This document shows, piece after piece, positions 41,864 through 58,034 of a DNA stretch of 64,000 nucleotides. Position 1 is the first letter of the stretch. Every line of letters begins with the position of its first letter. The notes under the pieces are model-generated. The model did no database searches. It was not told the DNA's origin and saw only the letters and a list, made by a program, of their open reading frames with translations. Origin of the DNA: an uncultured Acidobacteriota bacterium (GTDB lineage Bacteria; Acidobacteriota; Thermoanaerobaculia; Multivoradales; JAHEKO01); assembly GCA_963713825.1 (NCBI GenBank), contig CAVQNG010000025.1:160001-224000 (forward strand). The letters run 5' to 3'. Both the position numbers and the translations under genes were made by a program.

Positions 41864-43777
41864 ATGAGGAAACTAGATGTGTTGCCAAGACTGATTCTGA
41901 TTTCACTTTTCGGCATGGTTGCCATGCCTGTGACAGGTCCGGCTCAGGAGTACACACCCAGCGAGGACGCTGTCATCGAGAACGTCAGCAGGTCGGAGTT
42001 CTCACCCTATGTCGGCCGCGAGTATCCGACCCGTGTCTTCTGGGGTGAAACTCATTTGCACACCGCCGTGTCGGTAGACGCGGGGACCATGTGCCGGGTC
42101 GGGCAAGAGGATGCTTACCGTTTCGCGCGTGGCGAGACGATCACGACGACCCACGGCTTGCGTGCCAAGCTCTCTCGGCCATTGGACTGGTTGGTCATCG
42201 CCGACCACTCGGAGATGTACGGACTCATGCCGCAGCTCCTCAAAGGGGACCCCGAGATCCTCGCGACCGAAAAGGGCAGGCGCTGGTACGACATGTTGAT
42301 GACCGATGACCGGGATCAAGTCTTTGCGGCTGCAATGGAGATTGTCGCTTCGCTGCAGCAACCCGATCCTCCGATCGCCAATGACAAGTCGGTCAAGAAT
42401 GCTTGGCGGGAGTACACGGCCTTGGCCGACAAGTACAACGAGCCCGGCCGTTTCACCGCCCTGATCGGCTGGGAGTGGACAGCACTCGGCGGTTTCAATC
42501 TGCATCGCAACGTCATTTTCCGTGGTGACTCGAGCGTTGCCAACCAGACTGTCCCTTACTCGCAGTTCGACAGCCAGAACCCCGAGGACCTGTGGCGGTA
42601 TCTGGCTAATTTCGAGGCGCACACAGGCGCCGAGGTTCTCGCCATCCCACATAACGGGAACTTGAGCAACGGCCGCATGTTCAATGTCGAAACGAACGAC
42701 GGCAAGCCGCTGACCAAGGAGATTGCCGAGCTCCGCGCCTCGATCGAGCCCCTGATCGAAGCCACCCAGATCAAGGGCGATGGTGAGGCACATCCATTTC
42801 TGTCGCCGGACGACGAGTTTGCCGACTACGAAACCTGGGACAAGGCCAACCTCGACGGCACCGAGGTCAAGACTGAGGACATGTTGCGCTGGGAGTACGC
42901 GCGAGAGGCGCTCAAGACCGGTCTGATGCTCGACAAGCAGCTCGGGGTCAACCCCTACAAGTTCGGCATGATCGGCAGCACCGACGCGCACACGGCTCTG
43001 GCAGCGGTCGAAGAGAACAATTTCTTCGGCAAGCACTCGGGCGTAGAGCCCGAGGAACATCGATGGGAGCACATCGTGATCGAGTCGCCGATGGATCCGG
43101 ACCTGACCGTTTATGGCTGGCAGCAGGCGGCTTCCGGCTATGCAGGCGTCTGGGCCAAGGAAAACACCCGCGAGGCGATCTTCGACGCCATGCAACGCAA
43201 GGAGGTCTACGCCACGACGGGCTCGCGCATTCTTGTTCGGTTCTTCGGTGGATGGGAATTCGAAGCAAGCGATGCGGAGTCTCGGATGCCTGGCGGAATC
43301 GGCTACGAAAAAGGCGTGCCGATGGGAGGGGACCTGCGCAAGGGGTCCTCAGGCAAGGCTCCGAACTTCCTCGTCGCCGCCATGAAAGATCCCCTGAGTG
43401 GCAATCTGGATCGCATCCAGATCATCAAAGGCTGGATGGACAAAAACGGTGATCTGCACGAGAAGGTCTTCGATGTCGCCTGGAGCGACGACCGGCAGCC
43501 TGGCGCCAACGGCAAGGTCCCTGCTGTTGGTAGTACGGTAGATGAAGCCAACGCGACCTGGAGCAACTCGATCGGCTCTCCCGAGCTCATTGCTGTTTGG
43601 GAGGACCCGGATTTCGACGCAGGAGAAAGCGCCTTCTACTACGCTCGTGTGATCGAGATTCCGACCCCGCGCTGGACCGCGTACGAGGCCAAGCGGTTCG
43701 GCATCGACATGCCTGACGAGGTGCCGATGACGACTCAGGAGCGGGCCTACACCTCGCCGATCTGGTACACGCCGTAG
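41864..43777 (+). CDS. DUF3604 family exported PHP-like metallohydrolase
   Basis: Signal peptide; FWGETHLHT, IADHSE, NLHRNV, AIPHNGN, GSTDAH, QERAYTSPIWYTP. Confidence 0.9.
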   Translation: MRKLDVLPRLILISLFGMVAMPVTGPAQEYTPSEDAVIENVSRSEFSPYVGREYPTRVFWGETHLHTAVSVDAGTMCRVGQEDAYRFARGETITTTHGLRAKLSRPLDWLVIADHSEMYGLMPQLLKGDPEILATEKGRRWYDMLMTDDRDQVFAAAMEIVASLQQPDPPIANDKSVKNAWREYTALADKYNEPGRFTALIGWEWTALGGFNLHRNVIFRGDSSVANQTVPYSQFDSQNPEDLWRYLANFEAHTGAEVLAIPHNGNLSNGRMFNVETNDGKPLTKEIAELRASIEPLIEATQIKGDGEAHPFLSPDDEFADYETWDKANLDGTEVKTEDMLRWEYAREALKTGLMLDKQLGVNPYKFGMIGSTDAHTALAAVEENNFFGKHSGVEPEEHRWEHIVIESPMDPDLTVYGWQQAASGYAGVWAKENTREAIFDAMQRKEVYATTGSRILVRFFGGWEFEASDAESRMPGGIGYEKGVPMGGDLRKGSSGKAPNFLVAAMKDPLSGNLDRIQIIKGWMDKNGDLHEKVFDVAWSDDRQPGANGKVPAVGSTVDEANATWSNSIGSPELIAVWEDPDFDAGESAFYYARVIEIPTPRWTAYEAKRFGIDMPDEVPMTTQERAYTSPIWYTP

Positions 43778-43898: not shown

Positions 43899-44768
43899 TC
43901 AGTTGTCGAGTGAGACCAGTAGAGCCTTGGCGTCTTCGATGACCTGGGTTTGCTCCACGACATAAGCCTGATCGGGCTCGAGCTGGACAAGATCGTTCAG
44001 CAGTGCCCGGGCCTCCTGCTCCTGGTCGGGAAAGTGCTCCAGGAGGGCATCGGCGAGATAGAACCGGGTCAGCGGGGCATCGGGTGTCAGCTCGATGGCG
44101 CGCCGCAGCTCGCTGACAGCCGTCTTTCGATTTACCCAGCCGGTGAAGATCGGCAGCTTGGGTGCCTCGGAGTGAAGCCGCCCGAGGACGCGATGTCCCC
44201 CGGCCTCTTCGATCTCTTCATCGATCTCGATGACGACTTCGGAGAAGTTCCGGATCTTCTTGGCAACGCCCTCTTTGGCCGCCGCCATCTTGCCGCGATA
44301 GCGTCCCCAGAGTCCCCAGTGAACGGATGACCAGAAGTAGACTTGTGCAGACTGGGGTTGGTCGGCCAAAGCCGCGGCCAGCTTCTCGGTCTTCATGGAG
44401 TCCGGGTTGTCGCCCAGGCCGGCGGCGATCGCGAGCTGCTCTCGCCCCACATCGGCGATCTCTCTGGCCTTTTCGTAGAGGGCGAGCCTCTCATCCGGGT
44501 CCTGTAGCACGTGCTCGCCCTGATAGTAGAGGCTTCTGAGGAGTTTCCAGCGTGCTTCGAGGTTCTCCGGGTCCTGTGTCAGGAGCTCTTCAAATGCCGC
44601 AATGGACTCTCCGATCGGCTCAGGCAGGGCAACCGAACCGGAGTGGCCCTCGGCCCGCCGCAGGTAGGCAGCGTCCCCTCGGGCCATGAGATCCAGATCC
44701 TGTGCCGGTAGCGGCGATAAGGATGAAAGCAGCAGCGTCAATGCCAGCAACGGAGCCAGGGTCTTCAT
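43899..44768 (-). CDS. Exported TPR-like helical protein (TatT-like)
   Basis: AGGAGG RBS; signal peptide MKTLAPLL...PA; TPR-like helices; AGGHRVLGRLHSEAP. Confidence 0.65.
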   Translation of the reverse strand: MKTLAPLLALTLLLSSLSPLPAQDLDLMARGDAAYLRRAEGHSGSVALPEPIGESIAAFEELLTQDPENLEARWKLLRSLYYQGEHVLQDPDERLALYEKAREIADVGREQLAIAAGLGDNPDSMKTEKLAAALADQPQSAQVYFWSSVHWGLWGRYRGKMAAAKEGVAKKIRNFSEVVIEIDEEIEEAGGHRVLGRLHSEAPKLPIFTGWVNRKTAVSELRRAIELTPDAPLTRFYLADALLEHFPDQEQEARALLNDLVQLEPDQAYVVEQTQVIEDAKALLVSLDN

Positions 44769-45058
44769 GGTCTCACCTCCTGCAAGTGTGTATCCATCGG
44801 CCTGTCGACGGGGGGCCGAGGGCTGGGATGCAAACCCCTCTAAGCGCTTGATCGTATCCTCAAGTGGCATTCCAGGGTAGCGAAACGTCCTGGAGCCGTG
44901 ATAGAAACTCACAGCGCTTCGCAGGGTTGCCATGAAGCGCATCATTTTCGGAACGGCTACCTCGGACTCGCTCGAAGCAGCCCGATCAAGGGGTTGCTTC
45001 AGCTGTGTTCGAGTCAGTGGTGCACGTTGATTGGTGTGACGGGGAGTTTCGAGGAACC

Positions 45059-47077
45059 ATGGATCAAATGTCATCGCAGGGAGTACTGGAGTCGAGGAGC
45101 GTTGCGCCGCAGGCAGCGCCCGAAGCCGAGGAGTGGCAGGCTCGAATTCGCGATTCGATCCGAGGTGCCCGGCAGCAGCTCTTGAATCTGCAGGAGGCCG
45201 ACGGTCACTGGTGCGCCGAGCTCGAGGGCGACACCATTCTCGAGAGCGAGTACGTTCTTTTGTTGCACTTCCTGGGCCGGATTGGTGAGGAGAGGGTTCA
45301 GAAGGCGGCCAACTACCTGAGGACCAAGCAGCTGCCCGACGGGGGCTGGGGAGCCTATCCGGGCGGCGGCGCGGATGTGAGCACGTCGGTCAAGGCCTAC
45401 TTCGTGTTGAAGCTGGTCGGTGACGATCCCGATACGCCGCACATGGCAAGGGCGAGAGAGGTCATTCGCCGCAAGGGTGGACTGCACGCCTGCAATTCCT
45501 TCACCAAGCTCTATCTATCCATCTTCGGACAATACGAGTGGGACAAGAGCCCTGGTGTACCGCCCGAATTGGTGCTGCTGCCATTGTGGTTCCCGATCAA
45601 CATCTACGACATGTCCTCCTGGTCACGAGCCATCGTGGTGCCCTTGAGCATCATCTGGGCCTACAAGCCCAGCTGTCCGGTTCCTGAGCACGCGAGGCTG
45701 GACGAGCTGCTGGTCGAGAATACGAGACGGGCCGTACCACAATTCAGTCGCGCCTCGCTCCTGCACCATGGCTGGTCATTGTTCTTCCAAACCCTCGATC
45801 GGATTCACAAGCAGGCGGAAAGGTGGCATTTGATGCCGCTGCGACGCCGCGCCTTGCAGCGAGCCGAGGAGTGGATTCTCCCGAGGCTCGAGAAGAGCGA
45901 CGGGCTCGGAGCCATTTTTCCGCCCATCGTCAACACCATCATGGCTTTGCGTTGCCGAGGCTACTCGGTAGATCACCCGATCATCCAGGCCCAGATTCGG
46001 GAGCTCGAAAGGCTGGAGATCGAGACAGGCGACACGCTGCGATTGGAGCCCTGCAAATCACCCGTCTGGGACACGGCCTTGTCACTCAATGCGTTGGGTG
46101 AAAGCGACGACCATGAAGACAGGGCGCGGCTGGAACAGGGCGTCGAGTGGTTGCTGGGCAAGGAGGTCAAGGAGGTCGGGGACTGGAAGATCAAGAGCCC
46201 CGATGCCTGCGTGGGTGGTTGGTACTTCGAGTACGCCAATGAGTTCTACCCGGACTGTGACGACACCGCCCAGATCTTGTCGGCGGTGGCCAAGCTCCGC
46301 CCCTTGTCCGGGGACCTCGAGGAGCGCTATTCGGCGGCCTCTGGGCGCGCTATCTCGTGGCTCATCAGCATGCAGAACCGCGATGGCGGCTGGGCCTCCT
46401 TCGACAAGGACTGCAACAAGGAGTTCCTGACCTACGTGCCGTTCGCTGATCACAACGCCATGATCGACCCGAGCACGACGGACATTACCGCCCGGGCTCT
46501 CGAAGCGTTGTCCGCCAACGGTCACGATCTCTCTTCGGATGTCGTCCGGCGAGCCGTCGCTTTCATCCGCCGCCTGCAGAAGGGCGATGGAACCTGGTAC
46601 GGTCGCTGGGGCTGCAACTACATCTACGGTACCTGGTTGGCGCTGTCTGGACTCAAGGCTGCAGGAGAGGACCTGTCAGAACCGTGGGCCCAAAGCGCCG
46701 CCGAGTGGTTCAGAAGTTGTCAGAACTCCGACGGCGGGTGGGGCGAGCTGCCCGACTCCTATGCCGATTCCAGCAAGAAGGGAATCGGCCCCAGCACGGC
46801 CGCGCAGACCTCCTGGTCGCTTCTGGCCCTGATGTCGACGGGCGATCGAGACAGTGACAACCTCAAGCGGGGTATCGAGTACCTGTTGACTCAACAGCAG
46901 GCCGACGGTAGCTGGAAAGACGAGTGGTGGACTGGCACCGGGTTCCCAGAGGTCTTCTATCTGGACTATCATCTGTACGCAACCTACTTTTCATTGCTCG
47001 CCCTGGAGACCTATCGCAAGGTGGTCGCTGCCAACGGTGGCGATGACTCTGCGCAGGCAGGCCTTCGTGCCGTGTAG
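45059..47077 (+). CDS. shc: Squalene-hopene cyclase
   Basis: QEADGHWC, QW repeats (QLPDGGW, QNRDGGW, QNSDGGWGE, QQADGSW), MSSWSR, SPVWDT, YPDCDDTA (DxDD), TGTGFP. Confidence 0.97.
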   Translation: MDQMSSQGVLESRSVAPQAAPEAEEWQARIRDSIRGARQQLLNLQEADGHWCAELEGDTILESEYVLLLHFLGRIGEERVQKAANYLRTKQLPDGGWGAYPGGGADVSTSVKAYFVLKLVGDDPDTPHMARAREVIRRKGGLHACNSFTKLYLSIFGQYEWDKSPGVPPELVLLPLWFPINIYDMSSWSRAIVVPLSIIWAYKPSCPVPEHARLDELLVENTRRAVPQFSRASLLHHGWSLFFQTLDRIHKQAERWHLMPLRRRALQRAEEWILPRLEKSDGLGAIFPPIVNTIMALRCRGYSVDHPIIQAQIRELERLEIETGDTLRLEPCKSPVWDTALSLNALGESDDHEDRARLEQGVEWLLGKEVKEVGDWKIKSPDACVGGWYFEYANEFYPDCDDTAQILSAVAKLRPLSGDLEERYSAASGRAISWLISMQNRDGGWASFDKDCNKEFLTYVPFADHNAMIDPSTTDITARALEALSANGHDLSSDVVRRAVAFIRRLQKGDGTWYGRWGCNYIYGTWLALSGLKAAGEDLSEPWAQSAAEWFRSCQNSDGGWGELPDSYADSSKKGIGPSTAAQTSWSLLALMSTGDRDSDNLKRGIEYLLTQQQADGSWKDEWWTGTGFPEVFYLDYHLYATYFSLLALETYRKVVAANGGDDSAQAGLRAV

Positions 47078-47115: not shown

Positions 47116-48117
47116 ATGCGATTTCCACTGCACATCACGACCGACAACATCAAGCATTCGATGAAGAATGCGATGCAGGGCAACCGGCGCTACCCGTTCG
47201 TCCTAATGCTGGAGCCGCTCTACACCTGCAATCTGGCGTGCATCGGTTGCGCGGTCGAGCGGCACACCGGCAAGCTCAAGGATCGGTTGCCGGTCGAGCT
47301 GTGCCTGCAGGCTGTCGACGAGTCTGGTGCGCCGGGCGTGTCGCTGTGCGGTGGTGAGCCGACGGTCTATCCCGAGCTCAAGGAGCTCGTCGACGGCATT
47401 ATCGAGCGCAACCGCCACATCTATCTCTGCACCAACGCCTTGCTCATGGAAGAGAAGGTCTTCGGGCAAATCGATCCTCACAAGCGGTTGACCATCAACG
47501 TCCACTTGGACGGTATGCGGGAGACACACGATTACGTTTGCGCCCGCGATGGGGTGTTCGACAAGGCCGTCGAGATGATCAAGGAGTCGAAGCGCCTCGG
47601 CTATCACACCATTACCAACACGACGATCTTCAAGGAGACGAAGATCTCCGAAGTCGAAGAGCTCTGCGAATACATGGCCAGCCTCGATATCGATGGGATG
47701 TTGATCTCGCCTGGCTATCAGTACGAGTCCGTGGAAGAAGACATCTTCATGACTCGTCAGGACATCTACGACAAGTTCCAGCGCGTGCTGGAGATCTCCA
47801 AACGGTATCGGCTGACGTCGACTCCGATGTTCCTGGAGTTTGCCGCCGGGCTGCGCGACTACAAATGCTCACCATGGAGCACGGTGACCTTCACGCCCAA
47901 CGGCTGGAAGGGCCCCTGCTATCTGATCGGCAAGAAATTCACCTGGTCGTGGGAGGAGTTCTGGAATCTCACCGACTGGGAGTACTGGGAGTCGCGCGAA
48001 GATCGGTTGTGCCAGAACTGCCTGATGCACTCTGGCTTCGAGGCTTCCGTGGTCAAGGAGCTGCCGCGCAGTCCAGGTGACATGGCTCGTCTGATGGCCT
48101 GGAACTTGATGGGCTGA
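47116..48117 (+). CDS. hpnH: Adenosylhopane synthase, radical SAM
   Basis: YPFVLMLEPLYTCNLACIGC, GGEP, YLCTNA, VHLDG, CSPWS, PCYL, CQNCLMHSGFE. Confidence 0.92.
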   Translation: MRFPLHITTDNIKHSMKNAMQGNRRYPFVLMLEPLYTCNLACIGCAVERHTGKLKDRLPVELCLQAVDESGAPGVSLCGGEPTVYPELKELVDGIIERNRHIYLCTNALLMEEKVFGQIDPHKRLTINVHLDGMRETHDYVCARDGVFDKAVEMIKESKRLGYHTITNTTIFKETKISEVEELCEYMASLDIDGMLISPGYQYESVEEDIFMTRQDIYDKFQRVLEISKRYRLTSTPMFLEFAAGLRDYKCSPWSTVTFTPNGWKGPCYLIGKKFTWSWEEFWNLTDWEYWESREDRLCQNCLMHSGFEASVVKELPRSPGDMARLMAWNLMG

Positions 48118-48216: not shown

Positions 48217-49206
48217 ATGAAGGTCTTTCTCACCGGTGCCACTGGCTTCATCGGCGGGCATCTGCTGCGGTCTCTGCTCGAGGCTGGAGCAGAAGTGCGA
48301 TGCCTGACTCGGGCCCAGAGTCGGCGCAGGAATCTCGACGGTTTGGATGTCGAGGTCGCCGAGGGAGACTTACGGGACGCGAGTGCCCTGCGCTCGGGGG
48401 TCGAAGGCTGCGAGATGGTGTTCCATTGCGCTGCCGACTACCGGCTGTACAGCAAGAACCCCGAGGAGCTCTACGAGTCCAACGTAGAGGGGACTCGCAA
48501 CCTGATGCAGGCCGCCTCGGAGGTGGGGGCGCGGCGAGTGGTCTACACCAGCTCGGTCGGTGCTCTCGGTCTCGAGCCTGACGGATCACCGGCGGACGAG
48601 GAGACACCGGTCACTCTCGAGGCCATGGTGGGGCACTACAAGCGGAGCAAGTTCCTGGCAGAGCGAGTCGCCGATGATTGGGTTGAGAAGGGGCTTCCGA
48701 TCGTGATCGTCAACCCTTCGACTCCGATCGGGGAGGGTGACCTCAAACCCACCGCGACGGGCCAGATGATCGTCGACTTCCTCAATCGGAAGACTCCGGC
48801 CTATGTGGACACGGGGCTGAACCTGGTAGACGTGCACGATGTGGCCCTGGGCCATGTTCGGGCCGCAGAAAAGGGCAGGGTCGGTGAGAAGTACATCCTC
48901 GGCAATCGCGACCTGAGCCTGCGGGAGATCTACCAGACGCTTGGCAGCTTGACCGGGCTGCCGGCCCCGAAGATCAAGGTGCCGCATTGGCTGCCGCTCG
49001 CTTGGGCAGCTCTCGACACTGGAGTGAGTCGCCTTGTCGGGCGGACACCGGGAGTGCCGCTCGAGGCCGTTCGTCTATCGAGATACAAGATGTACTTCGA
49101 CGCCAGCAAAGCAGTGCGCGAGCTCGGCCTGCCCCAGACCCCCATCGAAGAACCCCTGCAGAGAGCCGTTGACTGGTACAAGACCAACGGCTACGTGACC
49201 CGCTAG
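48217..49206 (+). CDS. hpnA: Hopanoid-associated NAD-dependent epimerase/dehydratase
   Basis: TGATGFIG, FHCAADYRL, YTSSV, GHYKRSKFLAE, NPSTPIG..KPT.TG, PAYVDTGLN. Confidence 0.92.
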   Translation: MKVFLTGATGFIGGHLLRSLLEAGAEVRCLTRAQSRRRNLDGLDVEVAEGDLRDASALRSGVEGCEMVFHCAADYRLYSKNPEELYESNVEGTRNLMQAASEVGARRVVYTSSVGALGLEPDGSPADEETPVTLEAMVGHYKRSKFLAERVADDWVEKGLPIVIVNPSTPIGEGDLKPTATGQMIVDFLNRKTPAYVDTGLNLVDVHDVALGHVRAAEKGRVGEKYILGNRDLSLREIYQTLGSLTGLPAPKIKVPHWLPLAWAALDTGVSRLVGRTPGVPLEAVRLSRYKMYFDASKAVRELGLPQTPIEEPLQRAVDWYKTNGYVTR

Positions 49207-49222: not shown

Positions 49223-49987
49223 ATGTCATCGACAGAACAGATCGATCCGCGCCGGACGGGTCCAGGAGTTGCAGTCGTCGCCGCCATGGAAGAGGAGCTC
49301 TACTCTCTGCGCCAGCGGCTCTCGGACGTCAGGAGGGTGGCTCTCCCTACGGGCTCGGCGGTCCGCGGGCGCCTCGAATCCCAGGAGGTCTTGCTGGCGG
49401 CCACCGGGGAGGGCGCGGCGGCCGCCGAAAAGAGGCTATCGGCCCTCTTGTCAGACCGCAGCATAGAGGCCCTTCTCGTTGTCGGAGTCGCCGGCGCAAT
49501 CTCCCCGGATCTGGCAGTCGGAGATCTCGTGGCCATCGACTCGGTCAGAGACGAGCACGGCGAGATTCCATCGCCCGACGCCTCGCTTCTGCAGCGAGCC
49601 CTCACTTCGAAGAACGTCGTGCAGGGAGGAGTGGTGAGTGTCGACAAGATCGTGGTTGACGCTGCTGCCAAACAAGCTCTCTGGCAGTCCGTTGGCGGGG
49701 GCCCGTTCCAAGTGGTCGACCTGGAGTCGGCGACTTACGCGCGACTGGCGACGGAAAAGGGAATCCCCTATTTCGTCCTGCGAGCAGTCAGCGACACCGC
49801 AAGTGAAAGTCTGCCGCTCGATTTCAATGCGTTTCGCAGCTCGGATGGGAGCATCAATCGAGGCAGGGTGGCGCGACATTTGATCTTCCATCCACATCTG
49901 GTTGGGCCCTTGAAGGACCTACGCACCCGTTTGAGAGAATGTGCGGTCTCGATGGCGAATGTCGTCGAAGAGATTCTGAGACCATGA
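49223..49987 (+). CDS. hpnG: Hopanoid-associated nucleoside phosphorylase/nucleosidase
   Basis: AAMEEE, GVAGAISPDLAVGDLV, VDLES, LRAVSD, LPLDF; hpn context. Confidence 0.85.
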   Translation: MSSTEQIDPRRTGPGVAVVAAMEEELYSLRQRLSDVRRVALPTGSAVRGRLESQEVLLAATGEGAAAAEKRLSALLSDRSIEALLVVGVAGAISPDLAVGDLVAIDSVRDEHGEIPSPDASLLQRALTSKNVVQGGVVSVDKIVVDAAAKQALWQSVGGGPFQVVDLESATYARLATEKGIPYFVLRAVSDTASESLPLDFNAFRSSDGSINRGRVARHLIFHPHLVGPLKDLRTRLRECAVSMANVVEEILRP

Positions 49988-51396
49988 GACGTCCAACAAC
50001 CTGGCTCGAGCCTTTAGCACTGAGGGCATTGGTCATCGGCCTGCTGTCGGTGAGCCTTCTGGCGGTGGGTGCTGCGGCAGAGGAGGAGTCGAAGCGGAGG
50101 CTCTTCATTGCCCTGGATGCTGTTCCCTACCAGATAGCGGCTGACGTCATGAATCCGGCCCTGGGCGACGAGGCGCTGTTCCAGGGTTTCGAGGGCCCGG
50201 TGCGGCTGGTCAGCACGTTCCCATCCTCGACGAGCGTGGCGCTGCCCGGGATCCTCGGGCCGATCGGGCTCAGGCGGTCTCCGGGTTACGAAGCCCGCTT
50301 CTTCGACTGGCAGGAGAGCAAGGTCAGGGGCGGTGGGGCCGTCAGCTATGGCCGCATCGAGTTTCCATGGCGGGATTTCTTCGATTGGGGGCGCAAGGGC
50401 GTAGCGGGCAGCGCGATCGAGGCCGTGAAGCCGGTCAAGTCGGGTATCAAGCGCCTCCGCAATGCCATGGAAGACTTCGTTCAATCGGACAAGGAGGAGT
50501 TCTGGATCTACTCTGCGGCGACGGATATCGCGGGTCACGTCATCAGTCCGCAGGCGCACGTCGACTTCTTCAAGGCGCTGGACGAGATGATTCTGGAAGC
50601 GCGCCAGGCGTCACCCGGTCGTCCTTTCGACGTCGTCGTCTTCTCCGATCACGGCATGGATGGTGGCGAGCCTCTGATCAATGTGTTCAGGCCGGCCAAG
50701 AAGGCTCTCAAGCAAGCCGGGTACCGCAGCAAGAAGCGACTGAAAGGCGCTGAAGACGTAGTGCTGACACCCTTCGGATTGGTCTCCAACTTCGAGGCCT
50801 ACACCGTCGACGAGAACAAGGCGCGGGTGGCCGAGATCCTGGCTGCCGTCGAAGGTGTGGACCTCTGCGCCTATGAGCTGGAGGAGGGCTGGCGGGTCGA
50901 AAGCCATCGGGGCAGCGCCACGTTCCTGCAGGATCAGCGCGAAGGAGAGCTCTGGTGGTCGTATGAGCCGCATCACGGCGACCCGCTGGAATTCCTGGAC
51001 GGGATCGAGCGGATGGAGAAGGCCGGCCTGGTGCGACAGGGTTGGTTGCCGGACAAAGCCACCTTCGAGGCCACTATCGATGCGGAGAATCCAGATCCCT
51101 TCTATCGCATTGCTCATGCCTTCGAGTTGACTACGAACCCTGCCTCGGTGATCTGCTCGGCGAGTCGGGGATACATGTATGGTGCTCCCCACACAGGGGT
51201 CCTGGCCCAGATCGGCAAGGGCCACCTGCGCTGGACCCACGGCGCCTTGAACCGCGATGCCACCCTCGGATTCCTGTTCAGCGATGTCGAGGGTTGGGAG
51301 GCGCCAGAGGCCATTCGTTTCGATCGTGCCATCCTGCCCTTTCACGACACTGTGGAGGGAGAGCCGGAGACCGACGCCCCGAAGCCATCCCAATAA
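49984..51396 (+). CDS. Exported alkaline-phosphatase/nucleotide-pyrophosphatase superfamily protein
   Basis: Signal peptide; IALDAVP, STFPSST (Thr nucleophile), TDIAGH, FSDHG, THGAL; ATGA overlap with hpnG. Confidence 0.82.
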   Translation: MRRPTTWLEPLALRALVIGLLSVSLLAVGAAAEEESKRRLFIALDAVPYQIAADVMNPALGDEALFQGFEGPVRLVSTFPSSTSVALPGILGPIGLRRSPGYEARFFDWQESKVRGGGAVSYGRIEFPWRDFFDWGRKGVAGSAIEAVKPVKSGIKRLRNAMEDFVQSDKEEFWIYSAATDIAGHVISPQAHVDFFKALDEMILEARQASPGRPFDVVVFSDHGMDGGEPLINVFRPAKKALKQAGYRSKKRLKGAEDVVLTPFGLVSNFEAYTVDENKARVAEILAAVEGVDLCAYELEEGWRVESHRGSATFLQDQREGELWWSYEPHHGDPLEFLDGIERMEKAGLVRQGWLPDKATFEATIDAENPDPFYRIAHAFELTTNPASVICSASRGYMYGAPHTGVLAQIGKGHLRWTHGALNRDATLGFLFSDVEGWEAPEAIRFDRAILPFHDTVEGEPETDAPKPSQ

Positions 51397-51451
51397 GCCA
51401 AGAAATCTACGCGGTGAGTCGACCGAGTCGCGGGCAGCCCCCTCACGGCGG

Positions 51452-51480
51452 TTTTCAGCATTGCAGGTAAGCTGTAAGAT
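51452..51480 (+). promoter_or_regulatory. Candidate sigma70 promoter for the mevalonate sub-cluster
   Basis: TTTTCA-17 nt-TAAGAT in the 124-nt gap before the prenyl synthase gene. Confidence 0.35.
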
Positions 51481-51520
51481 AACGACTCATACCAGTCCCC
51501 ATTTGATGTCGAACAGGCCG

Positions 51521-52648
51521 ATGAGTGGAACGATGAGTGTCGAAGAGGCAGGCCGCAGGCAGGCAACGCAAGAGGCCGGCACCGATTTTGATGAGCTGTT
51601 GGTCTCTTTCCGGGATCGGCTGGAGACCGACCTCATGGCCTGGGTCGAGGCCAAGCGCCTTGCGACCCGCGCCGAGCTCGGGGAGGCCGACGAGCTGACT
51701 GGAGTGCTGTCGGAGTTCCTGGCGCGCGATGGGAAGCGATTGCGCCCTGCCCTGGTCTACTACAGCTACAGAGCTTGTGGCGGCGATTCGGAGCCGGTTG
51801 TCATGCCGGTGGCCATGGCTGTCGAGCTGCTGCACACCTATCTTCTGGTGCACGATGACATCATGGATCACGCCAAGACGCGGCGTGGAGAGCCGGCCGT
51901 GCATGTGCTGTTCAGCGAGTTCCACCGCGACCGTGGATGGCACGGAGACTCCAGCCACTTCGGCACCTCTGTGGGTATCTTGCTCGGTGACCTGGCGGAG
52001 TCGTACGCCGTCGAGCTCTACTCGTCTTCCGAGATGTCGGAGGCAGTGAGAGACGGTGTGCGGCAGTGCTTTTCGACGATGTGCCAGGAGGTCATTGTTG
52101 GACAGTATTTGGAGATGACAGCCGGGTATCGAGGCAATCTGACCGAGGCAGAGCTGCTGCGGATCCTGCAAATGAAATCAGGCCGCTACAGTGTCGAGCG
52201 ACCGGTTCAGCTGGGAGCACTGCTGGCTGCAGCTTCACGGGACACCCTCGATGCTCTGACCCGATACGGGGCTCGGCTTGGTGAGGCCTTCCAACTTCAG
52301 GACGATCTCCTGGGGATGTTTGGCGATGTCGAGACGGTTGGCAAGCCGGTAGGCGAAGATCTGGCCGAGGGCAAGTACACGATCTTGATTCACAGCGCCC
52401 TCGAGAAGCTCTCGCCAGCGGATAGAAAAACCGTCGAAAGGGCGCTTGGCAACGCCGATATTCGAGAGCCGGAGGTGAGAGAGGTTCAGAAGCTCATCGA
52501 GGGTGTCGGGGCTCGCCAACAGGTCGTCGAAATGATCGAAACGCGCCTTCAGGCCGCCGACCAGGCCCTCGACCAGGCCGCAGTGACGGGCCCGGGAGCG
52601 AGTTTCCTCGAGGGGCTGATGGAGTACCTGCGTGGGCGAGAGCGCTAG
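51521..52648 (+). CDS. idsA: Short-chain trans-prenyl diphosphate synthase (archaeal/IdsA-type FPP/GGPP synthase)
   Basis: GKRLRP, ELLHTYLLVHDDIMD..TRRG, GQYLE, KSGRY, AFQLQDDLLG, GKPVGEDLAEGKYT. Confidence 0.92.
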   Translation: MSGTMSVEEAGRRQATQEAGTDFDELLVSFRDRLETDLMAWVEAKRLATRAELGEADELTGVLSEFLARDGKRLRPALVYYSYRACGGDSEPVVMPVAMAVELLHTYLLVHDDIMDHAKTRRGEPAVHVLFSEFHRDRGWHGDSSHFGTSVGILLGDLAESYAVELYSSSEMSEAVRDGVRQCFSTMCQEVIVGQYLEMTAGYRGNLTEAELLRILQMKSGRYSVERPVQLGALLAAASRDTLDALTRYGARLGEAFQLQDDLLGMFGDVETVGKPVGEDLAEGKYTILIHSALEKLSPADRKTVERALGNADIREPEVREVQKLIEGVGARQQVVEMIETRLQAADQALDQAAVTGPGASFLEGLMEYLRGRER

Positions 52649-52672: not shown

Positions 52673-53692
52673 ATGACTTCGCACGAAGACCGGGATCGCA
52701 AGGCCGAGCACATCCAGTTGTCCCTCGACGACCGGATGCAGTTGCACGGGCACTACTTCGATGCATACTCCTTCGAGCACCAGGCGCTGCCCGAGCTAGA
52801 TCTCCAGGAGGTGGAGGTCTCGACCCGATTCCTCGACAAAGCCATCGCAGCGCCTCTCCTGATTTCCTGTATGACGGGCGGCACCGGCGATGCGGTCCGC
52901 ATCAACCGGCATCTTGCAGAGGCTGCTGAGGAGGTCGGGATCGCCCTTGGGATCGGCTCACAGCGCAAGGCACTCGAAGATCCCAGCCTGGTCGAGAGCT
53001 TCAAGGTCCGGCAGTGGGCTCCGACAATTCCCCTGCTCGGCAACCTGGGTGCGGTGCAGTTGAATTATGGCTATGGCCTGGACGAGTGTCGAGCCGCCGT
53101 GGAAATGATCGAGGCCGACGCTCTGGTGCTACACCTCAATCCTCTGCAGGAAGCGATCCAGCCAGAAGGGCAGTGCGACTTCAGCGGTTTGATCTCCAAG
53201 GTCGGGCAGATCGTGGAGGGTCTGGAAGTGCCGGTCATCGTCAAGGAGGTCGGGTCGGGCATCTCCCAAGGATTGGCCACCAGGCTGTGGGATGTCGGAG
53301 TGATAATCGTCGATACGGCTGGAGTTGGTGGAACGAGCTGGGCGCGAATCGAAGGCGCACGGGCCCGGGACACAGAGATCGGAGAGCTCTTTGCTGGCTG
53401 GGGGATTCCGACACCGGCGAGCATTCGACAGCTGCGCCGAGTACCCGGTCTCCAGATCATCGGCAGCGGTGGCGTCAGCAACGGCCTCGATGTCGCCAAG
53501 GCGATCGCTCTCGGGGCGGAGATGGCGGGCATGGCGCAGCCCTTCCTGGTCGCCGCGGATGATTCGGCCGAGGCCGTCGTGAGAAAGATCAGGCGCACGA
53601 CAAGAGAGCTCGAGATCACCATGTTCTGCACCGGGGCGCGCAATCTCGAGGCCCTACAGCAAGTCGAGTTACGTCATCCTAGCGAGGATTGA
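52673..53692 (+). CDS. fni: Type 2 isopentenyl-diphosphate isomerase (FMN)
   Basis: RKAEHI, HQALPE, MTGG, GSQR, HLNPLQE, KEVGSG, GGTSW, WGIPT. Confidence 0.96.
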   Translation: MTSHEDRDRKAEHIQLSLDDRMQLHGHYFDAYSFEHQALPELDLQEVEVSTRFLDKAIAAPLLISCMTGGTGDAVRINRHLAEAAEEVGIALGIGSQRKALEDPSLVESFKVRQWAPTIPLLGNLGAVQLNYGYGLDECRAAVEMIEADALVLHLNPLQEAIQPEGQCDFSGLISKVGQIVEGLEVPVIVKEVGSGISQGLATRLWDVGVIIVDTAGVGGTSWARIEGARARDTEIGELFAGWGIPTPASIRQLRRVPGLQIIGSGGVSNGLDVAKAIALGAEMAGMAQPFLVAADDSAEAVVRKIRRTTRELEITMFCTGARNLEALQQVELRHPSED

Positions 53693-53698
53693 AGCACC

Positions 53699-54967
53699 AT
53701 GACCTCTGCACAGCAAGATTCCGTGGATCGTGAGGAACTGGTTCGACAGTTGGTCGAGGGTGAGCGGCGCTGGCACGAGTTGCCGGAAGGGATGCCGGCT
53801 CACGTTCAAGCCAAGATCCGACGTCGTGCCCTGGAGGCCATGACCGGTGTCCAGCTCGACAACATCGCCGCCTACACTCTCGATCCGGTGCGAGCTTCAA
53901 CGCGACACGCGGAGAACTTCATCGGTGCGACGCAGATTCCCGTCGGCATCTGCGGACCGCTCAAGGTCAAGGGCACTTGGGTCAGTGTCGAGGAGGATCT
54001 TCACGTACCGTTGGCGACCAGCGAAGGAGCGCTGATCGCGAGTATCAACCGGGGCTGCCGAGCCCTGCGTGAAGCGGGGGGCGCTGTCGTTCGTGTCGAA
54101 GACGTCGGAATGACCCGAGCGCCGGTTTTTCGCACACTCGGAATCGATGACACCCGGCGCTTTCTCGACTGGGTGCGCCAGAACGACTCGAAGATTCGTC
54201 AGGTGGCGGAGGCGACCAGTAACCATCTCGAGCTCCTGGATATCAAGCCGCAGACTTTTGGCAGTTCGATCTATCTCCGCTTTCGCTTCCGGACGGGGGA
54301 TGCCATGGGCATGAACATGGCAACGATCGCTTGCGATCGAGTCGTGCGGGACCTCATCGAGCCGGGCACCGGCATTCCCTGCGTAGCGCTGTCGGGCAAC
54401 TTCTGCGTCGACAAGAAACCCTCGGCGGTCAACTTCCTGGAAGGCCGGGGCAAGCGAATCTACGCCGAAGTGGTGCTCGATGGCGAGATTCTCGAGCGCT
54501 GCCTGAAGAGCACTTCTCGATCGCTGGTGGAGGTGCAGTATCGGAAGAACCTCCTGGGCTCGATCGCTGCCGGTTCGATGGGATTCAATGCCCACTATGC
54601 GAACGTTCTGGCTGCGGCCTTCATTGCCATGGGTCAGGACGTGGCACAGGTGGTCGAAGGGGCAATGGGGGTGACCTGCATCGAACCCCGGGGCGACGAT
54701 GCCGTCTTCGCCTCGGTGTATCTCCCGGACGTGCCGTTGGGTGTCGTCGGTGGTGGTACGGCACTGGGCCCGCAAAAGGAGGCCCTGGAGGTCATCGGCG
54801 CCGTTGCCGACCCCGAGAACCCCGGTGCTGGAGCGATGCGATTGGCAGAGATTCTGGGCGCGATGGTCCTGGCTGGCGAGCTTTCATTGCTGGCTGCCTT
54901 CACCTCTGGAGACCTTGCTGGGGCCCACGAGCAGCTCGGCCGCGGCGCCATTCCCGACGCAACCTAG
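53699..54967 (+). CDS. hmgA: HMG-CoA reductase, class I (NADPH, archaeal-like)
   Basis: ENFIG, PLATSEGALIASINRG, MTRAP, GDAMGMNM, SGNFCVDKKP (cis-loop), GQDVAQ, VGGGT, AHEQLGR. Confidence 0.95.
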   Translation: MTSAQQDSVDREELVRQLVEGERRWHELPEGMPAHVQAKIRRRALEAMTGVQLDNIAAYTLDPVRASTRHAENFIGATQIPVGICGPLKVKGTWVSVEEDLHVPLATSEGALIASINRGCRALREAGGAVVRVEDVGMTRAPVFRTLGIDDTRRFLDWVRQNDSKIRQVAEATSNHLELLDIKPQTFGSSIYLRFRFRTGDAMGMNMATIACDRVVRDLIEPGTGIPCVALSGNFCVDKKPSAVNFLEGRGKRIYAEVVLDGEILERCLKSTSRSLVEVQYRKNLLGSIAAGSMGFNAHYANVLAAAFIAMGQDVAQVVEGAMGVTCIEPRGDDAVFASVYLPDVPLGVVGGGTALGPQKEALEVIGAVADPENPGAGAMRLAEILGAMVLAGELSLLAAFTSGDLAGAHEQLGRGAIPDAT

Positions 54968-55040
54968 AGTTGCCCCCGAGCATGATGGAGAGTTCCCCTC
55001 TGGCGCCCGAAGCAGGCTCGACGCTGAGGGCGCGTTCCTG

Positions 55041-56120
55041 ATGCCGCGACACGTTCTGGCCACCACCCCTGGCAAGCTCATTCTGATGGGGGAGCATGCG
55101 GCGGTCTATGGACGGCCGGCCCTGGTAGCGGCTGTAGCACCTCGCACGAGGGTGGAGGTGACCGAATACACCGCAGGGGTCGTGGTGGAGCTACCCGACC
55201 TGGATCGGGAGCTGCGCAGCAACTGGTCCGAGTTGGCGGCAGCAGCGGAGGCTGCGCGGATCCAGTGGGAAGCTTTCTCCGAGAACCCGATAGCGGAGCG
55301 CTTCGAGGCCCTGCGAAGCTCCGACCCTGCCCACCTGGTCGAGCTCGCTCTCGGGGAGGTGGCGGTCGAGCTGGGAGCCGACCTGCCTCCGATGACCCTG
55401 CATGTGAAGTCGGACCTACCTGTCGGCTCGGGATTCGGCAGCTCGGCGGCCGTGGCGGTGGGGCTCGTGGGCGGGGTTCTGTGCTTCATGGAAGGCGTCG
55501 CGGCTCGGCCACTCGTCGATCGCATCGCTTTCGATGTCGAGCGTCGCCAGCACGGGATGCCTTCCGGCGTTGATCACCGAACGGTGCTGCAAGGCGGCAT
55601 TCTGTGGGCCGAGCGGAGCTCTGGGGGTGAGCTTCTCACCACGCCGGTCGAAGGCGGTCAGCTCCTTGGCTCCCGCATCCAGGTGCTGCATACAGGGCAG
55701 CCGTCGGAGACGACGGGTGACGTGGTGGCGGCGGTTCGGCAACTCGCCTACGAAGACCAGGCGGGCTTCGACAGGTTGCTGCATCGGATGGAGTCGTCCG
55801 TCGACGGTTTTCGTGACTGGCTGAGGAGTGGGGCGGGCGATCTCGATCGAGCGATCACGGCGATTCGAGACTATGAGACATGCCTGGAAGCCATAGGTGT
55901 TGTTCCTGCATCTGTGCAGCAGGCGATTCGAGAAGTGGAGGCGCTTGGTGGGGCCGCCAAGATCTCTGGCGCCGGGGCCCTTTCGGGCGAGGCCGCGGGT
56001 TGTCTTCTCGTCTGCTGGCCCGACACCTGGGATGGTCGGTCGCCGAAAGGTCTGTCGGCATACAATCTCCAGGATGTGGAGTTGGGGGTGCCAGGATTGA
56101 CTTGCGAGGTCGAGGGATGA
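55041..56120 (+). CDS. mvk: Mevalonate kinase
   Basis: PGKLILMGEHAAVYG, LPVGSGFGSSAA, HGMPSGVD, AKISGAG. Confidence 0.93.
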   Translation: MPRHVLATTPGKLILMGEHAAVYGRPALVAAVAPRTRVEVTEYTAGVVVELPDLDRELRSNWSELAAAAEAARIQWEAFSENPIAERFEALRSSDPAHLVELALGEVAVELGADLPPMTLHVKSDLPVGSGFGSSAAVAVGLVGGVLCFMEGVAARPLVDRIAFDVERRQHGMPSGVDHRTVLQGGILWAERSSGGELLTTPVEGGQLLGSRIQVLHTGQPSETTGDVVAAVRQLAYEDQAGFDRLLHRMESSVDGFRDWLRSGAGDLDRAITAIRDYETCLEAIGVVPASVQQAIREVEALGGAAKISGAGALSGEAAGCLLVCWPDTWDGRSPKGLSAYNLQDVELGVPGLTCEVEG

Positions 56121-57121
56121 CAGCAAAAGCCACAGTCGTCGCACCGGCGAATATCGCCTTCATCAAGTACTGGGGCACGCAGGACTGGGATCAGACGTTG
56201 CCCTTCAACCCCTCCATCTCTATGACTCTACGTGAGTGTGTCACCCGCACGACCGTCGAGCTCATCGAACGTTCAGAGGGCGACTCGGTCCTTCTCAGAA
56301 CGGCAGAGGGTAGCCTCGAGCCAGCCGCCGAAGCGTTCCGTCAGCGCCTCGAGCCCCACCTTGACCGGCTCCGCAGATGGGCTGGTGAAGAAGTCGCGTT
56401 TCGAGTCGCCACCGAGAATAGCTTCCCCATGGGGGCCGGCATGGCTTCGTCGGCATCGGGCTTCGCTGCCCTCACACTGGCCGTGGTGGCTGCCCTTGGC
56501 AAGCAGACCTCAGGGGAAGAGGCGTCCGTTCTGGCACGCCTCAGTGGGTCCGGATCAGCCTCTCGATCGGTCCTGGGAGGCTATGTTCGGTGGCCCGCTG
56601 GAGAGGAACCTGGAGAGGAGCATGCGGTTCAGTTGGCATCGGCGGACCACTGGGACTTGCGCGATGTCGTAGCTGTCCTCCAGGAGCAGGCCAAGGAGGT
56701 TTCCTCTCGCGAGGGGCACGAGCGGGCACCTTCGAGTCCCTACTTCGAGCCCAGGCAGAAGTTGCTTCCGGACCGCCTCGAGACCGTCACCCAAGCGATT
56801 CTGGCGCGGGACTTTTCGTCCTTGGCGCAGACTGTCGAAGAGGAGGCGATCGACCTCCACCTCATCGCCATGTCTTCCCACCCGCCAATTTTCTACTGGA
56901 GACCAGGAACCCTCGAGGTCCTGGCGGCCATTCGCCTCCTGCGGCAGGATGGGGTCGAGGTCTGTGCAACCATGGACGCTGGTGCCAACGTGCACATGAT
57001 CTGCACGCCAGACTCCGAAGCCGCGGTGGCAGAGGTGGTGGGAGCGATAACAGAAGTCGGTTATTTGATCTACGACGGTGTTGGGCAGGGTCCCAGGACG
57101 ATTGAAGAGCACCTGGTCTGA
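56117..57121 (+). CDS. mvaD: Mevalonate decarboxylase family protein; probably mevalonate-5-phosphate decarboxylase
   Basis: ANIAFIKYWG, SISMTL, GMASSASG, GSGSASRS, KEVSSREGH, TMDAGANVH; followed by IPK, and no PMK in the cluster. Confidence 0.9.
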   Translation: MTAKATVVAPANIAFIKYWGTQDWDQTLPFNPSISMTLRECVTRTTVELIERSEGDSVLLRTAEGSLEPAAEAFRQRLEPHLDRLRRWAGEEVAFRVATENSFPMGAGMASSASGFAALTLAVVAALGKQTSGEEASVLARLSGSGSASRSVLGGYVRWPAGEEPGEEHAVQLASADHWDLRDVVAVLQEQAKEVSSREGHERAPSSPYFEPRQKLLPDRLETVTQAILARDFSSLAQTVEEEAIDLHLIAMSSHPPIFYWRPGTLEVLAAIRLLRQDGVEVCATMDAGANVHMICTPDSEAAVAEVVGAITEVGYLIYDGVGQGPRTIEEHLV

Positions 57122-57125
57122 AGCG

Positions 57126-57953
57126 ATGGCATCGACGATAGAAGTCGTTCTCGTCAAGCTGGGCGGCAGCCTGATCACCGACAAACGGCGACCGGAGACG
57201 GCGCGAGAGGATGTTATCGAGCGTCTGGCCGGGGAGCTCGCGGCTCTGCGGCAGGCTGGGGTGCGCCTCGTCCTGGGTCATGGTAGCGGCTCCTTCGGTC
57301 ATGTGGCGGCTGCGAAACACGGCATCCACGAGGGGGTGGCAACGCCCGATCAGCTTCTTGGCGTGACCGAGACTCAGGATCGGGCGGCAAACCTGAACCG
57401 ACGGGTCCTCGGCGCCCTGCTAAGGAGCTCGGTTCCGGCATTCTCATTGGCGCCGTCGAGTTTCCTTGTTTCGGCGGGAGGAAGACCGGACGAGCTATGG
57501 ATCGAGTCTCTGCTGGGCGCCCTGCAGGTGGGAATGCTCCCAGTGGTCTATGGAGACGTCGTCATGGACCGCCAGCTGGGAGCCTCGATCGCGTCGACCG
57601 AAGCCGTCTTCCTGGCCCTGGCCGAGGGACTCCAGGCCCGTGGCATGGTAGTTCGGCGCAGCATCTGGCTGGGCGAGACCGACGGCATCTACGACAGTCA
57701 GGGCGTGACGATCGGGGAGCTGCGACCCGACACCGTTGGGGACCTGCTGGACCAGATCCAGGGGGCCTCAGGAACCGACGTCACGGGAGGGATGAGACTT
57801 CGTCTGGAGACAGCGACTCGTCTCGCTGGGCTCGGAGTCGAGTCCTGGATAGCGAATGGCCTTCAGCCCGGGCTGCTGGCTGAGATCATGAGCGGCCATT
57901 GCGCCAAGGGAACGAGGGTGTTGGCGGCTCCGACTTCTCAGCCCCCAAGCTGA
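57126..57953 (+). CDS. ipk: Isopentenyl phosphate kinase
   Basis: VKLGGSLITDK, HGSGSFGH (IPK signature His), PVVYGD, DVTGGM. Confidence 0.92.
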   Translation: MASTIEVVLVKLGGSLITDKRRPETAREDVIERLAGELAALRQAGVRLVLGHGSGSFGHVAAAKHGIHEGVATPDQLLGVTETQDRAANLNRRVLGALLRSSVPAFSLAPSSFLVSAGGRPDELWIESLLGALQVGMLPVVYGDVVMDRQLGASIASTEAVFLALAEGLQARGMVVRRSIWLGETDGIYDSQGVTIGELRPDTVGDLLDQIQGASGTDVTGGMRLRLETATRLAGLGVESWIANGLQPGLLAEIMSGHCAKGTRVLAAPTSQPPS

Positions 57954-58034
57954 CATGCGCTCGAGAGAAATCGACGGCGAGGCAAAGGGCGAGGGCTGTT
58001 AGGATGAGCGGCCAAAGGAACGCAGAAGGCTGAA

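Follow-up and report, generated by a model that had tools for sequence, protein, structure and literature searches.

The window analyzed here, 64,000 nucleotides of an uncultured Acidobacteriota bacterium (contig CAVQNG010000025.1, positions 160,001 to 224,000), carries between the gene of an HpnG-like nucleosidase and that of a farnesyl-type polyprenyl diphosphate synthase (FPPS) an open reading frame (ORF) at 49984-51396 of the forward strand, encoding a protein of 470 amino acids (P0001) and called X in the following. We tentatively read X as an exported, zinc-type phosphoesterase of the NPP branch of the alkaline-phosphatase superfamily, an optional accessory of the hopanoid operon whose periplasmic target would be a hopanoid-linked, phosphorylated lipid headgroup. 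The assignment at the level of superfamily and NPP branch is sound, and X probably belongs to hopanoid biology. Within the gene run from shc to the squalene synthase gene, X alone has no role assigned.

The frame is free of stop codons over all 470 residues. The start codon shares bases with the stop codon of hpnG (bases 49984-49987 read ATGA, as stated in the preliminary description, which was made from the sequence alone), and X is translationally coupled to hpnG in this window. A longer reading from the ATG at 49939 is possible; the start was placed at 49984 because the homologues begin at that position. Scans for promoters, terminators and RNA folds between hpnG, X and the FPPS gene gave nothing exceeding the shuffled controls. 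The source genome is 96% complete, and the window was found at a word share of at least 0.70 in 14 DNA runs from 11 studies, covering marine, estuarine, salt-marsh and freshwater sediments. RNA libraries from two studies contain fragments of X (0-1 mismatches), which is weak evidence, DNA carry-over being possible; the contigs of these libraries leave parts of the window uncovered, and this has no bearing on an absence of expression.

Fold, active site and predicted export of X

The AlphaFold model of X (40 homologues as input; pLDDT 89.9, pTM 0.87) matches 201 PDB structures at E≤0.001 in Foldseek, and among the matches listed nearly all are NPP-family enzymes, plus phosphonoacetate hydrolase. 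The top match is ENPP6 (5EGE, E 2.5e-12, TM 0.48/0.56), and further ones are PhnA, the Xanthomonas (Xac) NPP, ENPP5, ENPP7, ENPP1 and autotaxin; the identity to the matched NPP-type structures is only 10-14%. At the sequence level, the family profile of X matches ENPP6 (4.7e-5) and ENPP7 (7.2e-5) across the DxxxH...SDHG region. PF01663 reaches 17.4 bits on X, over residues 174-239 only and below its gathering threshold of 23, while some homologues carry a precomputed PF01663 match. In the ESM Atlas, the whole protein finds PF01663-type clusters only, mostly from Acidobacteriota, and the insert at residues 236-372 gives scores below 0.9, which serve as a lead only. The family is small, with 471 representatives at E≤1e-3 among 1.84 billion, of which 96 remain at E≤1e-30, and those homologues that have a source name are labeled "hypothetical protein". 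None of the NCBIfam families matches X at E≤0.01, hence no curated Hpn model does, and the earlier placing of X outside the named hpn genes holds.

The features of X are as follows (conservation was counted in an alignment of 243 sequences, namely 139 close ones in the orthologue range and 104 distant ones).

49984-51396, forward strand: X, predicted exported NPP-like alkaline-phosphatase-superfamily protein (open frame, model, Foldseek, 264 homologues at E≤1e-3)
49984-50079, forward strand: predicted signal peptide, residues 1-32, ending ...VGAAA/EEE (from the sequence and the family N-termini; putative cleavage site)
50116-50118, forward strand: D45 in L44-D45-A46, metal ligand (D in 136/139 close and 100/104 distant sequences)
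50215-50217, forward strand: T78 of "TFP", alternative nucleophile (T/S in 135/139 close sequences; P/V/A in 40/104 distant ones)
50230-50232, forward strand: T83 in F79-P80-S81-S82-T83, likeliest nucleophile (T/S in 242/243)
50524-50538, forward strand: D181-I-A-G-H185, metal ligands (D in 138/139 and H in 139/139 close sequences; aligned with D-x-x-x-H of ENPP6 and ENPP7)
50644-50655, forward strand: S221-D222-H223-G224, metal ligands (invariant in 139/139 close sequences; aligned with SDHG of ENPP6 and ENPP7)
51235-51243, forward strand: T418-H419-G420 with the C-terminal metal-ligand His (H in 139/139 close and 101/104 distant sequences)

The preliminary description had called X an alkaline-phosphatase-superfamily enzyme with an intact active site, and both the model fold and the conservation of the ligands bear this out. 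The four motifs that it listed (LDA, DxxGH, SDHG and THG) were all found and are conserved across the orthologues; they are not chance matches, the ligands being kept in 136-139 of the 139 orthologue-range sequences. The D, H and G of the SDHG motif are, moreover, unchanged in all 104 distant homologues. The six ligands (three Asp and three His) form a two-metal site, with D45, D222 and H223 at one metal and D181, H185 and H419 at the other; four of the six align to ENPP6 and ENPP7, and D45 and H419 were assigned by motif position. Of the Thr nucleophile proposed earlier, the presence of a conserved Thr stands, and its position shifts. T83 opens the helix 83-94 of the model, and the sole row among the 243 with neither Thr nor Ser there has a gap. 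Distant homologues in which T78 is replaced by P, V or A still retain the metal site. Because T83 is near-invariant and starts a helix, whereas T78 varies in distant members, T83 is most likely the catalytic nucleophile, as judged from conservation and the model.

SDHG and the last His are ~195 residues apart, and the model places a beta-rich insert of ~130 residues (~240-370) between them. Eight residues (W129, R130, G227, N233, C295, C391, M398 and W417) are invariant in the orthologues only.

The N-terminus of X has the Sec-like layout of a short start (MRRPTTW), a hydrophobic stretch and an AxA-like site (VGAAA/EEE). A hydrophobic or small-residue run of at least 12 residues is found in 100 of the 129 orthologues with a complete N-terminus, in agreement with the signal or anchor noticed earlier, and a lipobox is present in 2/129. 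The pair C295/C391 covaries in the 243 sequences (both Cys in 148, neither in 88, only one in 7), and in 84 of 139 orthologues the mature part has no other Cys. This pattern fits a disulfide, which would in turn imply an extracytoplasmic protein. X is thus predicted to be Sec-exported, and to be a lipoprotein in a few relatives.

With the NPP enzymes (ENPP6, ENPP7, ENPP5 and the Xanthomonas NPP; PF01663) X shares the core fold (TM 0.44-0.56), the aligned DxxxH and SDHG motifs, a Thr nucleophile, six metal ligands and an extracytoplasmic location. According to the PDB titles, ENPP6 and ENPP7 cut phospho-headgroups off lipids. X differs from the NPPs in its beta-rich insert, its own invariant residues, its hopanoid/isoprenoid operon context and a PF01663 score below the cut-off. 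PhnA, a cytoplasmic C-P hydrolase, is the third-best structural match (1EI6, 3SZY; E 3.2e-11, TM 0.47/0.54), but no phosphonate genes lie near X and the sequence profile gives an E of only 0.22. Phosphoethanolamine transferases of the EptA/MCR type also have an alkaline-phosphatase-superfamily domain with a Thr nucleophile and act on envelope-lipid phosphates in the periplasm. These enzymes join a sulfatase-type domain (PF00884) to a multi-helix membrane domain, whereas X has no match to PF00884 (the EptA/LtaS-type sulfatase domain) and a single N-terminal hydrophobic segment in place of a multi-span anchor. There is likewise no match of X to PF01676 (phosphopentomutase and cofactor-independent phosphoglycerate mutase); one homologue (P0039) carries a precomputed one, and chains of the latter mutase meet the X family profile at E 0.038-0.37.

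In P0194 (834 amino acids), a membrane acyltransferase-3 domain precedes a domain distantly homologous to X (28% identity), a hint that the wider family acts on envelope substrates.

Association of X with hopanoid and isoprenoid genes

In the window X lies within one run of hopanoid and isoprenoid genes on the forward strand, so that the hopanoid neighborhood described earlier is confirmed by shc, hpnH, hpnA and the HpnG-like gene upstream.

45005-47077, forward strand: shc, squalene-hopene cyclase (TIGR01507, 691 bits)
47116-48117, forward strand: hpnH, adenosylhopane synthase (TIGR03470, 363.5 bits, above cut-off)
48217-49206, forward strand: hpnA, an SDR (TIGR03466, 471 bits, above cut-off)
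49223-49987, forward strand: HpnG-like nucleosidase gene (TIGR03468, 116 bits, below the cut-off of 187)
51257-52648, forward strand: FPPS (PF00348, 201.8 bits)
52673-59030, forward strand: type 2 IDI (IDI2), HMG-CoA reductase (HMGR), mevalonate kinase (MVK), (phospho)mevalonate decarboxylase (MVD), isopentenyl-phosphate kinase (IPK) and a squalene-synthase-like protein (SQS), from NCBIfam and Pfam matches

The FPPS ORF as listed overlaps X, and the family alignments start at ORF residue 123-146; its true start is probably after 51396. No match reaching the cut-off was found anywhere in the genome for HpnI, HpnJ, HpnK or HpnN, which extends to the whole genome the earlier remark that hpnI, hpnJ and hpnK are missing.

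Scanning of metagenomes with the X family alignment yielded 79 loci; in 68 of them the flank on one side reaches 900 nt or more. Hopanoid or isoprenoid genes are found in 40 of these 68 (47 when the TatT-like gene described below is counted) and are absent from 21. Among the counted loci are four pairs that duplicate an identical X protein, each belonging to the "none" class, and five loci whose X is a distant homologue (27-31% identity). Immediately upstream of X stands hpnG in 30/54 loci, and FPPS, IDI2 or SQS stands immediately downstream in 23/42. In a maximum-likelihood tree of X with 70 rows, all convincingly linked rows fall into one clade of 50 rows (SH-aLRT 99, 35-99% identity). Linkage of the homologues to hpn genes had been set beforehand as the test of the idea, and this linkage holds: 39 of the 50 clade rows, in several gene orders, lie beside hopanoid, isoprenoid or BstC/TatT-like genes (26 beside hopanoid and isoprenoid, 6 isoprenoid only, 3 hopanoid only, 4 TatT-like only), with 11 beside none. 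Outside the clade stand 20 rows; 19 of them have no linked gene, and the last has only an hpnA-like SDR ~8 kb off.

At least six gene orders keep X among hopanoid/isoprenoid genes.

Order 1: hpnG-X-FPPS-IDI2...
Order 2: hpnG-X-IDI2-HMGR
Order 3: hpnG-X-IDI2-SQS
Order 4: TatT-like (reverse strand), then X-FPPS-IDI2-HMGR...
Order 5 (genome G372): MVK-MVD-IPK-SQS-X, with shc-hpnH-hpnA-hpnG on a separate contig
Order 6 (MEP-pathway cluster): dxs (reverse strand), then ispH-hpnH-glycosyltransferase (GT2)-orf-X-SQS-shc-hpnG-hpnA

Since the MEP-pathway cluster also holds X, the tie of X is to the squalene and hopanoid genes and not to the mevalonate pathway as such. Among GTDB-derived loci the entire order is conserved in the close relatives, and a genome of another genus (G131, X at 48% identity) retains hpnA-hpnG-X-FPPS-IDI2-HMGR. 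A phylum sample of 401 Acidobacteriota genomes includes 20 with an X homologue at E≤1e-10 and 77 with HpnH. All four genomes with an X orthologue of at least 42% identity have HpnH, although these four represent two lineages and are not independent, and HpnH is likewise missing from G314 (98% complete), the one genome of the same family that has no X.

Proposed role and competing explanations

In the reading that we tentatively prefer, X would be secreted via Sec to the periplasm and work there as a two-metal phosphoesterase. T83 would attack a phosphate ester or diester and form a covalent phospho-enzyme, to be released by water as in the NPPs. Having been inserted after hpnG in a super-operon (shc-hpnH-hpnA-hpnG, mevalonate and squalene-synthase genes) that is widespread among Acidobacteriota, X may be co-expressed with the genes of this operon, and its target may be a phosphorylated lipid headgroup tied to the deployment of hopanoids in the envelope. 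Its substrate could be an extended hopanoid in a phosphorylated form or else, in membranes that contain hopanoids, a (lyso)phospholipid or a lipid-A phosphate. The data would accommodate an enzyme that adds or removes, outside the cytoplasm, the phospho-headgroup of a bacteriohopanepolyol. The bolder form of this idea, in which X would be the first periplasmic hopanoid-tailoring enzyme, making or removing a phosphate-containing headgroup on an extended hopanoid after its export, we consider rather unlikely. If it were true, sediment Acidobacteria would contain an unseen class of phosphorylated bacteriohopanepolyol intermediates or products, and the substrate would perhaps be passed on by the neighboring BstC/TatT-like lipid-binding protein.

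Several observations weigh against a hopanoid-linked function, or limit it. An X homologue at E≤1e-10 is missing from 71 of the 77 HpnH-bearing genomes, so X is dispensable for making hopanoids. Five X-less sister clusters share the same hopanoid core: in G236 (same order), G093 and G164 hpnG leads directly into IDI2-HMGR-MVK-MVD-IPK (G093 and G164 have no hpnA match), and in G286 and G305 the order is shc-hpnH-hpnA-hpnG-SQS. Because sister lineages have the same operon without X, X is not a general tailoring step, and X, often together with FPPS, is an insertion at the hpnG/IDI2 junction of an older operon. Passive retention after one such insertion could account for some of the synteny. Of the 11 unlinked rows of the orthologue clade, 6 have flanks of at least 3 kb; a subclade at 52% identity (L057, L061 and L062) has unrelated neighbors, which in L062, its only annotated member, are a sulfatase, DUF3786, a GGDEF regulator and a tyrosine-phosphatase-like gene. 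For L083, L101, L068 and L030 (downstream side), which are unlinked orthologues, the neighbors gave no information. Distant homologues (26-34% identity) are unlinked as well, HpnH being present in only 2/16 of their genomes, and conserved neighbors were found for them only in family f40 (a TPR protein and a PLP enzyme). In favor of the hopanoid link stands P0134 (712 amino acids, from one metagenome contig of 6.1 kb), a predicted fusion of an HpnG-like domain (4-188) with an X orthologue (283-705). A hydrophobic segment lies between the two domains, and a layout with HpnG inside, a membrane helix and X outside would fit this protein; the fusion is, at the same time, a single sequence that may result from an assembly, frame or gene-calling error. 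Longer fused forms of X, of 824-2350 amino acids, were not found at E≤1e-20, and this is weak evidence.

The strongest competitor is that X is a general periplasmic phosphoesterase, serving for instance the scavenging of phosphate (from nucleotides or organic esters), which was inserted once and has no specific tie to hopanoids. We regard this as unlikely overall, yet credible: the super-operon occurs unchanged without X, one orthologue subclade adjoins a sulfatase, the wider family is unlinked and broad-specificity NPPs are among the nearest solved relatives. Against a passenger speak the retention of X beside hopanoid/isoprenoid genes in at least six gene orders, the MEP-type cluster and the position after SQS included, its translational coupling to hpnG in the window, and the joint lack of X and HpnH in G314. 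The many orthologue-specific invariant residues listed above also speak against it, as they suggest a defined specificity.

Another explanation places X next to HpnG in the pathway: HpnG would be a phosphorylase, and ribosylhopane would form once X had cleaved off the 1-phosphate. Nucleoside catabolism offers an analogy, since phosphopentomutase, a member of the alkaline-phosphatase superfamily, acts there after purine nucleoside phosphorylase. The frequent position of X directly 3' of hpnG, the ATGA coupling in the window, the predicted P0134 fusion and the single homologue with a precomputed PF01676 match are in its favor. A 2026 review (PMC13459092) adds that a PNP-type cleavage by HpnG would yield phosphoribohopane, a theoretical HpnG product never observed, which makes a missing phosphatase a fair hypothesis. 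The HpnG of the window has no signal peptide, unlike X, and the chemistry of HpnH and HpnG is cytoplasmic. The solved relatives of this HpnG at E≤1e-5, 37 in number, are without exception hydrolytic nucleosidases, the best being MTA/SAH nucleosidases, and its stretches VAAMEEEL, VDLESAT and RAVSDTA align with the matching stretches of E. coli MTA/SAH nucleosidase; we take AMEEE, DLES and AVSD to hold the catalytic Glu, Glu and Asp. A phosphorylated HpnG intermediate is not expected, because the solved relatives are hydrolytic and the motifs align. X also keeps isoprenoid neighbors where hpnG is not adjacent (G372, L074 and L077), and hopanoid clusters with a similar HpnG have no X. The dephosphorylation of a phosphoribosyl-hopane, put forward in the preliminary description, is thus not borne out, and this role for X is improbable. 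A cytoplasmic phosphoribosylhopane step between HpnG and bacteriohopanetetrol is unlikely to be its place. A divergent HpnG as the reason for the presence of X was rejected: the TIGR03468 cut-off (187) is reached by no Acidobacteriota genome among the 401, and the HpnG of the window is among the better scores.

We hold it highly improbable that X acts on an isoprenoid diphosphate or pyrophosphate of squalene synthesis (farnesyl or presqualene diphosphate, or released pyrophosphate esters). Such substrates are cytoplasmic while X is predicted to be exported, and clusters with the same SQS have no X; this outweighs, in our view, that X adjoins a squalene-synthase-like gene in two independent rearrangements (SQS-X in G372, X-SQS in L082 and L091), that FPPS or IDI2 usually follows it and that NPPs are generally known to cleave pyrophosphate bonds.

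Neighboring genes, related systems and significance

Divergent from shc lies the gene of a TPR protein.

43899-44768, reverse strand: predicted secreted TatT/BstC-like TPR protein (start set at the Met before the signal peptide)

The ORF as listed reaches 45074, and the resulting upstream extension of 102 residues is probably untranslated. The model is all-helical (pLDDT 93.1), and Foldseek relates it to TPAT (8G52, TM 0.71/0.73), BstC (7T1S) and TatT (3U64). BstC 7T1S is also the best solved sequence match (E 1.4e-5). BstC binds sterols and was proposed to carry them to the outer membrane (PMC10942540); since this sterol-binding protein is the best solved match, the TatT/BstC-like protein may be considered, by analogy, a candidate periplasmic hopanoid carrier in Acidobacteriota. 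In X-bearing loci the gene flanks the hopanoid cluster. In the five X-less clusters with enough flank, the ~6 kb upstream of shc do not contain it. It directly adjoins X in several loci without hpnG; a deep-branching pair (L097 and L100) has the arrangement X (forward), TatT-like (reverse), and in L097 no isoprenoid gene lies nearby (flanks of 6.7-8 kb). A strict module of these two genes was rejected at the genome level. The TatT-like family matches 88/401 genomes, 26 of them at E≤1e-41, and an X orthologue is present in only 3 of these 26; G372 has X and no TatT-like match. As a family, the TatT-like gene is far commoner than X; it offers suggestive context but is no strict partner. Prediction of a complex between X (residues 33-456) and the TatT/BstC-like protein (23-289) gave a score of 0.00 in both runs, which is evidence neither way.

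Adjoining the TatT-like gene, at 41864-43777 of the forward strand, is the gene of a DUF3604 protein (PF12228, 800 bits); L004 and L048 retain this gene, and more distant clusters do not. Downstream of X, the mevalonate route at 52673-59030 (forward strand) has an isopentenyl-phosphate kinase and no phosphomevalonate kinase, corresponding to the alternative archaeal or Chloroflexi-type route, and a eukaryote-like one-gene squalene synthase replaces hpnC, hpnD and hpnE. Several Acidobacteriota families (L127, L131 and L132) likewise have their isoprenoid and hopanoid genes joined in one super-operon. In the MEP-type cluster of L082, a family-2 glycosyltransferase gene and an ORF of 347 amino acids, with a faint dienelactone-hydrolase match, lie between hpnH and X (L082:5520-7729, forward strand).

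X resembles the named hopanoid cluster genes (hpnA-hpnP and hpnL/M/S/T) in its conserved position within hopanoid clusters. Lawrence et al. surveyed shc neighborhoods and named hpnL, hpnM, hpnS and hpnT; as given in the main text, these encode lipid-transport-like proteins, unlike X, and the words phosphatase and phosphodiesterase do not occur in that text (bioRxiv 10.1101/2025.07.29.667474). Among the papers listed by full-text literature searches, none has an X-type gene in a hopanoid context, and X is not mentioned in the main text of two microsynteny papers, that of Lawrence et al. and Sinninghe Damste et al. 2017 (PMC5462960). The main text of the latter describes a gene "ug1" after hpnA-hpnG in subdivision-1 Acidobacteria, which like X stands directly after hpnG. 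In another acidobacterial family (f38), with the cluster order shc-hpnH-small orf-hpnA-hpnG, the gene in this position encodes a Zn-dependent medium-chain alcohol dehydrogenase (PF08240, PF00107) in 4/4 loci.

L133:5164-6255, reverse strand: Zn-dependent alcohol dehydrogenase
L134:4430-5557, forward strand: Zn-dependent alcohol dehydrogenase
L135:4159-5295, forward strand: Zn-dependent alcohol dehydrogenase
L136:4306-5460, forward strand: Zn-dependent alcohol dehydrogenase

An identity of X with ug1 was therefore rejected, the gene at the ug1 position (ug1 being identified by position only) encoding an alcohol dehydrogenase and no relative of X. The f38 dehydrogenase is a plausible candidate for the reductase from ribosylhopane to bacteriohopanetetrol, and the alcohol dehydrogenase after hpnG in other Acidobacteria thus offers a separate candidate for the post-HpnG step. 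The hunt for this missing step is narrowed, X being improbable for it.

Geological hopane biomarkers derive from hopanoids, which rank among the major membrane lipids of bacteria. X, a conserved and predicted exported enzyme with an intact predicted catalytic site, found in the super-operon of a sediment-dwelling acidobacterial clade, may bear on the extracytoplasmic handling of hopanoids in non-proteobacterial phyla. It is a cloneable candidate for a new step on the envelope side, which may be headgroup chemistry or a hopanoid-tied remodeling of the membrane.

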